48,784 nt of DNA, from assembly GCA_964467035.1 (NCBI GenBank), contig CAYXNX010000006.1, positions 1 to 48,784 of the forward strand. Direction: 5' to 3'. This DNA comes from Candidatus Woesearchaeota archaeon. GTDB taxonomy: Archaea > Nanobdellota > Nanobdellia > Pacearchaeales > GW2011-AR1. Both the position numbers and the translations under genes were made by a program. Numbering within the stretch: position 1 is the stretch's first letter; the number at the start of each line of letters is the position of its first letter. The notes below the pieces were generated by a model. The model was not told the DNA's origin. It made no database searches and worked only from the letters and a program-made list of their open reading frames with translations. This document shows, piece after piece, positions 1 through 48,784 of the stretch.

Positions 1-13
1 TTGTTTTGACGCA

Positions 14-54
14 GGTTAGAGTTTTTAACTCTAGCCCGAATCCTATCTCGGGCA
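14..54 (+). other. Hairpin (14-36) followed by an isolated tRNA 3'-end segment (37-54)
   Basis: GGTTAGAG-TTTTTAA-CTCTAGCC stem-loop, then CGAAT-CCTAT-CTCGGGC-A, which parses as T-loop end, T-stem 3' strand, acceptor 3' strand and discriminator. The cognate tRNA body is not in the window. Confidence 0.6.
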
Positions 55-97
55 TATTTTGAGATTTGAAATAGATTATTTGCTTTTTTTAAGAATA

Positions 98-112
98 TAA
101 AAAACTTTAAAA
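98..112 (+). promoter_or_regulatory. Putative BRE/TATA promoter of tRNA-Gly
   Basis: A-run followed by TTTAAAA (106-112), about 30 nt upstream of the mature tRNA 5' end. Confidence 0.5.
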
Positions 113-139
113 CCTTTGTAAATTAAATTATAATTAGGC

Positions 140-210
140 GCGTGGGTAGTTCAGTGGCAGAATAACTGGCTTCCAACCAGTTGACCCGGGTTCGAATCCC
201 GGCCCGCGCA
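140..210 (+). tRNA. tRNA-Gly(TCC), intronless, CCA not encoded
   Basis: Acceptor GCGTGGG/CCCGCGC plus A; D arm TAGTTCAGTGGCAGAAT; anticodon arm ACTGG-CTTCCAA-CCAGT; T arm CCGGG-TTCGAAT-CCCGG. Confidence 0.97.
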
Positions 211-382
211 TAATTCGATTCGAACCCTTCGAATCCCTTGATTGGCCAAGCATGGACGATCTAGGTTGGATTTTTAATCCAGCCGGCCCGCGCATAATTC
301 GATTCGAACCCTTCGAATCCCTTGATTGGCCAAGCATGGACGATCTAGGTTGGATTTTTAATCCAGCCGGCCCGCGCATAAT
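199..382 (+). repeat. 84-bp tandem repeat (2 full units plus 16 bp) anchored on the tRNA-Gly 3' end
   Basis: CCGGCCCGCGCATAAT at 199, 283 and 367; the two intervening 68-bp segments are identical. Confidence 0.95.
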
Positions 383-437
383 ATACTGCGGTTTTCATAA
401 TCTTTTTAAATTGCTTTTGGTAACTTATATCATTAAG

Positions 438-20105: not shown

Positions 20106-22826
20106 TTACTCCCTAAATTCTAATTCATCCAACATTCCGAATTCCCAATCATCTCTTTTGGATGATGTATATGTGAATTCTTTATGAGCAATTATCTCTT
20201 CGGGAATATCCTTCGCTTCCCAGACTTTAATAGGTCCTAAAAACTGTCCTCCAAATTGTGCAAAATCACCCAAATTCATTCCCTGAGATTCTAAGTTTTT
20301 CAAAATTGTGTTTGGTTCTTTATGTGCTATTTTAAGATTTTGTTCTTCTCCAAACAAATAATTCCTAACCACAAAGGAGTTAATTGTTCTAGGGCTTAAA
20401 TAAAATCCTGCACCCTTTTCAGCCATTGATAATCCCTTATTGCTATTCTCCAAATAATCCATTAAAAACACTCCTGCCTCCAATCCCTCTTCAAACTCCC
20501 TTAAACTATCAACATAAAGATATTTCAAAGGCACATTAAACTTTTGCTCATTTTTGACAAATACTGCTATTGGTTGTTGAAACTCTCCTTGTTTTTTTTC
20601 TACTCTAATTGACAAAATTCCTGAATTTTCTTTTGCAAACCTATATTTTGTTTCATTATTTTCCCAAACAATGTCTTCGTCAAGTTGGACACCAAGATTA
20701 TAGGTGTATATAGCTCCTTCATTTGTTTCTTCAGTAAGTTTTTCTTCTCTTTTCATTGTAGGAATATAGCTCAGTCTATCTTTCATTTCTTTCCCACTTC
20801 CGATTCTTGAATAAGCACTATACTTTCCAATATCTGAAGAATCAATTAATAAATGGGTCGAATTTGTTGATTTTATAAAACTTAAAGCTGAATCAGGATT
20901 TTGGGTTGTCAAAACATATCTCCCAATTAAATGAACTCTGTAGGGTGGATGGAATCCACCATCCACAATTGTGGCTCTTTTCCCAAGAGTTTGAAGCCAA
21001 TAACCATAATCCCACCAATGTAAAAATACAGAACTTTCATCAGTATTTTCTCTCACCCATTTCATTGCCTCCTGCCACTGATCATTAGCTGAAGGGCCTG
21101 TATTGCTTGCTTGCATCATTGAACTTTGATAAAATTCCAAACCAGAAATTATTAAACCAAAAATTACAGCAATTAAAGCAATCCACATAAAAATTTTAAC
21201 TAATTCATCTTTATTTTTTCTCGCAATATTATATAATTTAACAGGAACAATACTCCCAACAAAGCATACCACTGGAGTAATAACAAAAAACAATCTTACT
21301 GCTCCTCTTGCAGCAATCAACATAAAAATTAGCCAAGAAAAAGTTATTATCCATCCTGTTTCAATATAAAATGAGTCTGATTTTTCTTTACTATACAACC
21401 AAACAGAATATCCTAAAAAAAGGATAACTGGAGCAAAATAAACAAACTTCTTCATAATCTCAGATCCACTAAATAGTGTATGGGACGAGAAAATAATTCC
21501 TAAAAACATTAAAACTGACAACCCAAAAAAAGCATTTCTTCTTTTTTTAATTCCCGATATTTTTTTTGAAATTTCATTACAAACAAAAATTATACCTAAA
21601 ACAAACAACCAAAAAAACTCCTCACCTGTTTGGTTCATCCAATTACTTAATGAAGGAGACCTGTTTTCTGCAACAGTTTCACCAACTCTTCCTGTTCCAA
21701 AAGGATCAAGTATTTTTTCAAACACCTGCCCAATAATTGATAATTCTCCCATAACAGTAAGCAATATCAAGCCCAAAATAAACAAAATAGCAAAACTTGT
21801 TAAAATTTCATATTTTTCCTGAATTTTTAACATTTTTCTTTTACGCAGATAAATCATTAAATAATCAATTATAAGAAAACCTAAAACAACCACACTTATC
21901 AATCCAGTAGAGCTTAACATATATTTGCTTATTGTCGTAGATATTATGCGTCCTGAAATTAAAGGAGTGAAAACAAGTGATGAAGATATAATCAAAGCAT
22001 AAAATAAAGGAATAACTCCCAATATTTTCAAACTGTTTGTTGATTTTCTTTTAACAAACCAAAATATTAATACAGCAAGAGGAACAACCATAAAAGAAAA
22101 CCTTGCCAACCCTCCCCATGTAGCAATTGTTAAAGCCATTAAAAAACCGACTAAAACACCCCCCAAACATTTTTTTGTTAATTCCTCCTTATTTATTTTA
22201 CCAGAATTTTTATCAAGATATTTTAGTGAAACAGCAAAACCTAAAAGCAACAAAAAAAACGCAGACATACCAATTGATTCATGGTCTGCAAAACCAGCCA
22301 TAGTTCTATATAAATACATTGGAGTAATAGTAAGAAATAAAGATGCAATCAAACCAATAGTTCGCGATTTTGTTAGTTTACTTACCAACAAAAAATAAAC
22401 AAATATTCCCAATACAAAAAATATAACTGGGTTAATTATATGTGCATAATTTAATGTAAATCCTTCATAAAAAACATCCCCTATTTTCTGAATCATAATT
22501 GAACTATGGGGGAGTATTTCTGGAGTCCAGCCTTTACACTCTTGATCATAAACAACCCTGAGAGAATCGCATTCAGGCATTTTTCCTGGCTGATCCATTG
22601 TTTCTGCAACCCTTAAAAAATAATAAGGGTCCAATGCTAAAGGAATTTTTTCCCCAGTTGTTTGGTCTTTTAATAAATCTAGGTTTTGAATTCTAATAAA
22701 AACACCCAACAATATAATTAAAAGAATTCCTATAACTACAAAAATTTTTTGCGCTTTTTTTGTTTTTAAAAACTCTGTGGTTTTCCCAAACCCATACTTT
22801 ATTCCATCATACAAATCACTTCTCAT
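20106..22826 (-). CDS. aglB: Oligosaccharyltransferase AglB (STT3)
   Basis: DPYYFLR, RTMAGFADHE, TVAEN, WWDYG and DGG motifs; many N-terminal TM segments. Confidence 0.96.
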   Translation of the reverse strand: MRSDLYDGIKYGFGKTTEFLKTKKAQKIFVVIGILLIILLGVFIRIQNLDLLKDQTTGEKIPLALDPYYFLRVAETMDQPGKMPECDSLRVVYDQECKGWTPEILPHSSIMIQKIGDVFYEGFTLNYAHIINPVIFFVLGIFVYFLLVSKLTKSRTIGLIASLFLTITPMYLYRTMAGFADHESIGMSAFFLLLLGFAVSLKYLDKNSGKINKEELTKKCLGGVLVGFLMALTIATWGGLARFSFMVVPLAVLIFWFVKRKSTNSLKILGVIPLFYALIISSSLVFTPLISGRIISTTISKYMLSSTGLISVVVLGFLIIDYLMIYLRKRKMLKIQEKYEILTSFAILFILGLILLTVMGELSIIGQVFEKILDPFGTGRVGETVAENRSPSLSNWMNQTGEEFFWLFVLGIIFVCNEISKKISGIKKRRNAFFGLSVLMFLGIIFSSHTLFSGSEIMKKFVYFAPVILFLGYSVWLYSKEKSDSFYIETGWIITFSWLIFMLIAARGAVRLFFVITPVVCFVGSIVPVKLYNIARKNKDELVKIFMWIALIAVIFGLIISGLEFYQSSMMQASNTGPSANDQWQEAMKWVRENTDESSVFLHWWDYGYWLQTLGKRATIVDGGFHPPYRVHLIGRYVLTTQNPDSALSFIKSTNSTHLLIDSSDIGKYSAYSRIGSGKEMKDRLSYIPTMKREEKLTEETNEGAIYTYNLGVQLDEDIVWENNETKYRFAKENSGILSIRVEKKQGEFQQPIAVFVKNEQKFNVPLKYLYVDSLREFEEGLEAGVFLMDYLENSNKGLSMAEKGAGFYLSPRTINSFVVRNYLFGEEQNLKIAHKEPNTILKNLESQGMNLGDFAQFGGQFLGPIKVWEAKDIPEEIIAHKEFTYTSSKRDDWEFGMLDELEFRE

Positions 22827-48634: not shown

Positions 48635-48784
48635 ATAAAACCGCCACCGCCCGGAATCGAATCGTGCTAGGAAATTCTTGAAACGCACTAGTTCGCTTCC
48701 TCCCATAAAATAAAATAAAACCGCCACCGCCCGGAATCGAATCGTGCTAGGAAATTCTTGAAACGCACTAGTTCGCTTCCTCCC
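48635..48784 (-). repeat. 80-bp tandem repeat carrying a tRNA 3'-end copy (runs off the window end)
   Basis: Identical units at 48641 and 48721; the minus strand reads TTCGATT-CCGGG-CGGTGGC-G (T-loop, T-stem, acceptor strand, discriminator G, Asn-like) followed by a T-rich tract. Confidence 0.88.

Follow-up and report, generated by a model that had tools for sequence, protein, structure and literature searches.

The window, by which we mean the whole stretch of 48,784 nucleotides analysed here, is contig C6 of the source genome (G000), a Candidatus Woesearchaeota assembly of 761,617 bp in 19 contigs with 30% G+C and 87% completeness. Its first position is a contig end that lies inside an array of repeated tRNA ends (Table 1). 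The complete hairpin that is cut there is found on contig C13, whose start, reverse-complemented, equals window positions 1-28 and where it sits 3' of tRNA-Leu(UAG); a variant of the same module lies 3' of tRNA-Arg(GCG) on contig C14. The 18 nucleotides at 37-54 read as the 3' part of a T-loop, the 3' strand of a T-stem, the 3' strand of an acceptor stem and an A, and this string occurs only once in the genome. They probably derive from a tRNA-Arg(CCU), judging by their likeness to the end of a tRNA-Arg(CCU) at a metagenome locus (L247). A tRNA with this ending, which an earlier sequence-only reading of the same DNA had led one to expect upstream of the window, is absent from the 87%-complete assembly, and the contig itself begins within the array. 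Downstream of tRNA-Gly(UCC), positions 199-382 form a perfect 84-bp tandem repeat of 2.2 copies (100% match, TRF), in which each end copy is preceded by a 74-nt unit that folds into three hairpins (-26.7 kcal/mol for unit 1, RNAfold). The first of these, hp0, is made of inverted plus direct T-loop-like sequence. A second array, with copies of the end of tRNA-Ser(GGA), runs off the other end of the window; its unit ends in CTAGCAC, which recalls a motif of the F2 family of relatives described below.

Table 1. Features of the two tRNA-end arrays in the window (positions are those of the window).
Feature	Position	Strand	Remarks
Middle hairpin (hpA), 3' part, and linker	1..13	+	cut by contig start; full hairpin on contig C13
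Hairpin B, element family F1	14..36	+	-12.5 kcal/mol, z -4.3
tRNA 3'-end copy, T-loop C56 to discriminator, 18 nt	37..54	+	source tRNA outside the assembly
tRNA-Gly(UCC), intact, sole tRNA in the window	140..210	+	ARAGORN; Rfam tRNA, 71.7 bits
Unit 1	211..284	+	trailer 211-216, hp0 217-235, middle hairpin 240-261, hairpin B 264-284
tRNA-Gly 3'-end copy 1 (tRNA positions 64-73)	285..294	+	exact copy of 201-210
Unit 2	295..368	+	100% identical to unit 1 (TRF)
tRNA-Gly 3'-end copy 2, then native trailer	369..378	+	
Second array, tRNA-Ser(GGA) 3'-end copies	48641..48784	-	tRNA gene itself at start of contig C1
tRNA-Ser(GGA) 20-nt end copies	48641-48660, 48721-48740	-	
60-nt unit between the tRNA-Ser(GGA) copies	48661-48720	-	
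Partial unit of the tRNA-Ser(GGA) array, running off the contig	48741-48784	-	

The sequence-only reading had singled out the hairpins at 14-36 and at 264-284 and 348-368 as covarying members of a family of tiny elements tied to tRNA ends. Their sequences and coordinates were as it described, and both variants are stable folds that end in AGCC directly against a tRNA 3' fragment (37-54 for one, 285-294 and 369-378 for the other). Positions 8-40 form a 10-bp hairpin of -12.5 kcal/mol (z -4.3), which none of 200 shuffled sequences equalled, and positions 258-290 fold with -11.7 kcal/mol (z -2.5), which was equalled by five of 200. The covariation in the window amounts to one compensatory pair and one extra pair between only two hairpin variants, because the two Gly hairpins are copies of a single sequence within the perfect 84-bp repeat. 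By count alone, the hairpin pattern is not enriched in the window: a degenerate version of it gave 21 matches against 13.9 expected, and five of 100 shuffles reached 21. The significance of these hairpins comes from their tRNA-end context.

The further copies that had been predicted near other tRNAs are abundant in the genome. End copies of this miniature type were found at 15 of the 32 tRNA genes of G000, on the 3' side of 13 and on the 5' side of four, with two genes carrying both, so that the proposed link to 3' ends was right but incomplete. The set of 13 was obtained from a k-mer scan in which the 3'-terminal 11-mer was repeated for 15 of 32 tRNAs, after exclusion of two chance matches inside genes and of one 9.9-kb island, and with the addition of tRNA-Glu from a search for 10-nt copies; for 10 of the 30 tRNAs predicted by ARAGORN, the last 10 nt recur exactly no more than 450 nt downstream. 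On the 5' side, mirror-image arrays of 5'-end copies lie upstream of Lys-CUU (at least seven units), Ile-GAU, Val-UAC and Ser-GGA. Unit-like flanks, either truncated at a contig end or with diverged copies, accompany four more tRNAs (Leu-UAG, Ser-GCU, Trp and Gln-CUG). Each of the eight complete F1 hairpins in G000 stands before a tRNA-end copy. Contigs break at the arrays, as they do at both ends of the window, and by our reading of the contig ends 13 of the 38 in G000 fall in arrays or in array-bearing tRNAs; copy numbers are unreliable because arrays lie at contig ends and N gaps. Logan contigs cover the repeat to a depth of about 2x and the shared module to about 4x; no joints and no copy-number variants were visible in them, and parts of positions 400-1250 were uncovered.

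The element is not the single tiny hairpin of the sequence-only reading: it is a modular unit of 55-200 nt, usually in tandem and without any ORF, and the hairpin first noticed is the last of three in its unit. On the 3' side the order is a trailer of 2-12 nt, an inverted copy of a tRNA arm, one or two further hairpins and then the tRNA-end copy, and the two or three hairpins of a unit are common to different tRNA loci. The inverted copy comprises 8-13 nt of the T-loop and part of the T-stem, matches the T-loop variant of the local tRNA and often pairs with a direct T-arm-like stretch that follows it. The F1 hairpin pair is the same at different tRNAs of G000, with no difference between Val and Gly-GCC over about 53 nt, and it occupies two positions, the T-loop junction 55/56 at Val, Arg-GCG and the first copy of the window, and the junction 63/64 at both Gly tRNAs. 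A pseudo-T-arm located 3' of tRNA-Gly(GCC) (contig C1 of G000, 20470-20610) carries two hairpin pairs, with both insertion positions filled. End copies have a sharp inner edge, in the T-arm at 55/56 or 61-64 on the 3' side and in the D-arm at 13/14 on the 5' side, and the duplicated blocks measure 10-44 nt. They carry a few nucleotides of the gene trailer and no CCA, and therefore they derive from DNA or from a precursor, not from mature tRNA. Some distal copies have one to three mismatches, a sign of decay. The functional tRNA is always intact and the spare copy of its end is distal, in agreement with the regeneration of the tRNA end that had been proposed from the window.

We then consider the relatives of G000. 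A DNA search with the Gly unit in 30 of them returned short chance matches only, and the unit sequence is not conserved. The architecture is conserved across the genus even so: of 54 distinct tRNAs in three well-assembled genomes of the same genus, 16 are accompanied by a 3'-end copy at a distance of up to 600 nt and one by a 5' copy, whereas none of the 33 tRNAs in five genomes that belong to other families of the order has an end copy. The F1 pattern gave 65 single matches, in unrelated bacteria, among 185,579 species genomes and eight matches in viral contigs; we read these as chance, so that F1 appears confined to the window's own genome in these searches. A sister family, F2, is absent from G000 and concentrated in four of the 21 genomes of the genus (G004, G003, G010 and G006), and its pattern had no match in viral contigs. 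It is built of a hairpin, TTGCCAA or TTACCAA, a second hairpin, TAGCAC or GAGTAC, and an end copy that starts from 62/63. The inner edge of the repeated block is fixed at 62/63, and its outer edge varies (13, 13, 13, 15, 15, 26 and about 40 nt).

F2 elements also provided a broader view of hairpin covariation. In an alignment of 27 elements the conserved flanks make a 3-bp outer helix, the middle pair of which is G-C in 21 elements, A-U in five and mismatched in one, a correlation that was not imposed by the search pattern. The inner helix has double changes at four of its five pairs; since it had been pre-selected for pairing, only the outer-helix result is unbiased. Across the alignment 99.5% of the cells pair, compared with 37-47% when the partner strand is slid. 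In metagenome contigs the strict F2 pattern occurred in 106 stretches, with 80 loci among the matches listed. The non-redundant F2 hairpin elements among these listed matches number 53, of which 31 lie just 3' of a tRNA on the same strand, four lie 3' in inverted orientation, five are on the 5' side and 13 have no tRNA within 700 nt, eight of these last being at contig edges. Where an upstream tRNA is present, the end copy is exact in 24 of 39 of the elements listed. At six loci (L233, L257, L272, L294, L298 and L307) F2 was found with no tRNA within 700 nt, flanked by inverted repeats that are not derived from tRNA, and the sequences suggest that the hairpin pair may also sit in other, non-tRNA palindromes. 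An automated count of 83 candidates gave seven GNRA loops on the element strand and none on the reverse complement; by eye about 11 of 20 loops were of this kind, but in the automated count, which used a crude hairpin caller, only seven of 34 tetraloops, and the signal is weak. In several tRNAs of the relatives (loci L039, L056 and L058-L061; G003, G004 and G010) the canonical introns at 37/38 belong to one conserved two-hairpin sequence family.

Larger, gene-carrying insertions are found at tRNA genes of the same genus. Divergent tyrosine integrases of 360-440 aa directly adjoin tRNAs, mostly within this genus, for example tRNA-Asp, Tyr, Arg and Ala in G003/G006. Of the enzyme genes that the sequence-only reading had proposed to look for, those for reverse transcriptases are missing from the most affected genomes, and so are IS200/IS605 genes. 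In G000, a 9.9-kb island at tRNA-Asp (contig C1, 61316-71243) lies between 19-nt repeats of the tRNA end. It encodes a type I restriction subunit of 916 aa and a truncated integrase that retains just its N-terminal domain (121 aa). The corresponding island of G003 measures 8.7 kb and has a 428-aa integrase. The identity blocks of these two islands have their edges at 62/63 in G000 and 61/62 in G003, which coincide with the edges of F2 and of the second F1 site (site B, 63/64). On the 5' side of tRNA-Ala in G003, an 11.3-kb island ends at 13/14 with a junction hairpin, the same edge as that of the 5' units in G000. Downstream of the same tRNA-Ala, a stretch of 2 kb holds six end copies. Mini-units of F2 and of one other small type are interleaved there with a 1.3-kb gene-carrying insert and with copies beginning at the anticodon stem; this interleaving is accretion. 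The small units thus share with integrative elements an intact tRNA with a direct repeat of its end and the crossover-side boundary of their autonomous relatives (61-63 and 13/14). No integrase gene lies inside any unit, integrases being found only in the separate islands of 8.7-11.3 kb. The ends of both tRNA-Asp islands have no unit hairpins, and for this reason we rejected a derivation of the units from these islands by deletion. G004, the genome with most units, has only two weak integrase matches, G010 has Xer-like recombinases only, and G000 has Xer-like recombinases and the truncated island integrase only; Xer-like recombinases are not discriminating since they are also present in array-free families. 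At the 80 listed metagenome loci carrying the element pattern, only four of the ORFs are integrase-like.

To our knowledge, a tRNA-end arrangement of this kind was previously known only as an unexplained oddity at one tRNA locus of E. coli, the tyrT repeats, which are reportedly described in papers from 1978 to 1991 and for whose origin we know of no explanation. In the E. coli K-12 reference (NC_000913, 1286700-1287330; L337), tyrV is followed by three tandem 178-bp units annotated as RttR and tpr, each of which ends in the 3' end of tRNA-Tyr from the T-loop onward. Every unit also has the T-stem and acceptor region in inverted copy, a small palindrome in which inverted and direct T-loop sequence are joined, and a pseudo-T-arm into which a hairpin-rich segment is inserted. 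The tyrT/tyrV repeats are the closest architectural match to the archaeal units, with tandem units 3' of a tRNA, every one of them closed by a copy of that tRNA's 3' end from the T-arm onward. They differ in being restricted to one locus with 178-bp units, where the archaeal units measure 55-200 bp and accompany about half of all tRNAs, and in having an encoded CCA that the archaeal units lack. Neither 5'-side arrays nor modules common to several loci are known for E. coli, while the archaeal units have both, and the two systems share no sequence similarity and no Rfam RtT match. In Rfam searches, which included RtT RNA and small ribozymes, only the tRNA reached gathering score in the window, and the same held for window positions 1-420 at E<=1, so the hairpins match no known Rfam family, as had been supposed; loci of 18 relatives gave tRNA, RNase P and 5S only. 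Regarding the earlier remark that nothing of the kind had been described in DPANN archaea, no description of such arrays in archaea was found in full-text literature searches, although the architecture itself exists at E. coli tyrT/tyrV. A term search of the review 'Archaeal tyrosine recombinases' (PMC8371274) gave no match for DPANN, hairpin, remnant or non-autonomous; a further paper, PMC9897764, deals with tRNA gene fragments.

Other known systems resemble the units in part. Integrase sublocation classes exist at tRNA genes, and tRNA-targeting integrative elements have the same intact tRNA, far partial copy, sharp inner edge in the T- or D-arm and tandem accretion; unlike them, the archaeal units are gene-free, only 55-200 bp long, use one hairpin family for many tRNAs and have an inverted arm copy and covarying hairpins. 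Palindromes of the MITE, REP-like or IS200/IS605 type are likewise small, non-coding, hairpin-forming, multi-copy, lineage-specific and assembly-breaking, whereas the archaeal units show a strict tRNA-end linkage, no partner transposase, no conserved terminal inverted repeats and no fixed target duplication. With integron attC sites there is an analogy in the arrays at a fixed anchor, the hairpin-defined sites with conserved flanks and free stem sequence, and the inverse-plus-direct core-like pair; here, however, there are no ORFs, no IntI-type gene was identified and the core consensus is not matched. Finally, archaeal non-canonical introns and split or permuted tRNAs share T-loop and D-loop positions and families of short structured inserts common to different tRNAs, but the inserts of our units lie outside the functional tRNA and, by a geometry checked by hand, form no BHB motif at their junctions.

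The reading that we favour, with a probability of roughly 40%, is that the arrays consist of miniature non-coding att-type units at tRNA ends that were amplified by unequal recombination. We infer the enzyme, the mobility and the amplification route of the units as follows. The hairpin would be the distal module of a miniature non-coding insertion unit enclosed in a duplicated tRNA-gene end; units would have been inserted by site-specific recombination of the tyrosine-integrase type, as for the gene-carrying islands of the genus, and would be non-autonomous because they contain no gene; unequal recombination between the repeated tRNA ends may then have multiplied them locally, and their hairpin modules may have been homogenised or exchanged between loci. 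The always-intact proximal tRNA with a variable outer edge is typical of att identity blocks, and the prevalence in G000 (15 of 32 tRNAs), the edges shared with integrase islands, the accretion at tRNA-Ala of G003, the decaying distal copies, the restriction to the genus (16 of 54 against 0 of 33 tRNAs) and the 31:4 orientation bias among the elements listed also argue for att-type integration. Against it, a unit of 55-100 bp is too short to form a circle of duplex DNA, the tRNA-Asp islands have no hairpins, integrases of the island type are few or missing in G004, G010 and G000 and rare at the 80 listed loci, and no integrase is known to take part in the same architecture in E. coli. Furthermore, gene conversion or relaxed specificity must be assumed, since a single hairpin module is found at Val and Gly and an integrase is normally specific for one tRNA. 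A plain att scar does not predict the inverted arm copy or the compensatory hairpin changes.

Among the three origins offered by the sequence-only reading (mini-element, att-site scar or trailer ncRNA), att-type integration has the most support, and the data do not separate the three. The units could be functional trailer RNAs, transcribed together with the tRNA and then set free as small structured RNAs, in which the end copy and the inverted arm copy would act, by analogy with rtT RNA of the E. coli tyrT operon, as a tRNA-like handle for processing of the RNase P or RNase Z type or for 3'-end stability. This is a possibility that we hold rather unlikely: pairing kept through compensatory changes in the F2 outer helix (21 G-C, 5 A-U, 1 mismatch), the strand bias relative to the tRNA (again 31:4 among the elements listed), the GNRA loops on the element strand only (7 versus 0), an inverted copy that can close a three-way junction with the end copy and the annotation of the E. 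coli units of like build as the small RNA RttR all speak for an RNA role, but the families turn over fast and are specific to a species or subclade (F1 in G000 only, F2 in four of 21 genomes), end copies decay, some elements are inverted or nested, stem sequences are unconstrained and the T-runs inside hairpin B would tend to stop archaeal transcription before the end copy. A process with no dedicated enzyme, the other main rival, seems to us a doubtful explanation too. According to it, replication would stall at hairpin-forming, highly transcribed tRNA ends and switch templates through T-loop microhomology, leaving local duplications with inverted segments, after which unequal crossing-over would expand the units and gene conversion would spread hairpin modules between loci. 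The direct-inverted-direct arrangement of T-arms, the variable length of the duplicated block, the modules that are shuffled, nested, inverted or doubly inserted, the like build in E. coli and the lack of any transposase or RT co-distributed with the units are consistent with such events, which would nevertheless have to produce fixed junctions (62/63 in most F2 units at many tRNAs, 13/14 on the 5' side), an orientation bias of 31:4 among the elements listed and a sharp restriction to one genus, with none of the 33 tRNAs affected in sister families. The inverted arm copy and the covarying hairpins are explained well by none of the att, trailer-RNA and template-switching readings.

That the hairpin pair is moved, as a MITE- or PATE-like non-autonomous transposon, by a transposase with hairpin loops of the T-loop or D-loop type as its target (IS200/IS605, IS110 or another) is in our view improbable. 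The pair does behave as a discrete module, found at 55/56 and 63/64 and at both within one pseudo-T-arm, nested in the hairpin loop of another unit and in non-tRNA palindromes; yet there are no conserved terminal inverted repeats, the flanking inverted repeats being copies of the local tRNA arms, and no target duplication of fixed length, the duplicated blocks ranging from 10 to 44 nt. OrfB_IS605 was found in none of five genomes and a Y1 transposase in one of five, G000, where the only copy is IS200-like and has end hairpins of an unrelated kind, and the IS200/IS605 (PATE) route was rejected. This copy lies on contig C4 (29700-30065) between G+C-rich hairpins and is absent from four genomes of the same genus. 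A retroelement origin of the copies was also discarded, as RVT_1 is absent from G003 and G004, which have most units, and the only RT of G000 belongs to a DGR. The DGR locus (contig C2, 91330-94965) comprises a target gene whose variable region is C-terminal, an avd-like gene, the RT and an adenine-rich template repeat, with an 82-nt tRNA-like sequence (Rfam tRNA, 48.6 bits) between avd and RT. Still less probable is that the units are relics of bulge-helix-bulge introns or leaders of the 3' pieces of split tRNAs. T-loop and D-loop junctions resemble known non-canonical intron and split sites, and a sequence like hairpin B occurs inside a canonical tRNA-Lys intron of G010 (L054), but the proximal tRNA is complete without splicing and the introns aligned in relatives, from 10 of 22 matches, are at 37/38. 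BHB introns were rejected as candidates since the junctions form no 4-bp helix with two 3-nt bulges, a weak test that applied by hand a geometry taken from canonical introns. An assembly artefact of the metagenome bin, which the position of arrays at contig ends and N gaps might suggest, is scarcely credible: like architectures with different sequences occur in independent assemblies, one of them a genome in four contigs, and in many metagenome contigs, the Logan depth fits real repeats, and the E. coli K-12 reference has a like build. The sequence-only reading had likewise argued, from covariation, against an artefact.

A wider interpretation, which we put forward as speculative and on balance unlikely, is that the archaeal arrays and the tyrT repeats of E. 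coli share a cause, a general and so far undescribed process by which tRNA gene ends acquire hairpin cassettes free of ORFs. It would operate genome-wide here, either as an integron-like, hairpin-recognising recombination or as small-RNA expression punctuated by tRNA-like handles. Each cassette would be closed by an inverted arm copy and end in a templated copy of the tRNA end, and the integron-like option would recognise folded hairpins at the T-arm and the D-arm. If the reading of the arrays as insertion units holds, a small-genome archaeal lineage would harbour, in large numbers, the smallest tRNA-anchored units of this kind known, on about half of its tRNA genes and on both sides of them. 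This would bear on how tRNA genes tolerate and recruit mobile DNA, on a possible origin of non-canonical tRNA gene structures such as fragments, introns and split genes, and on the poor assembly of these genomes, with 13 of 38 contig ends of G000 affected. In addition, the arrays could offer a comparative handle for the 178-bp tyrT repeats of E. coli, and annotation pipelines would meet many partial tRNA copies in these genomes.
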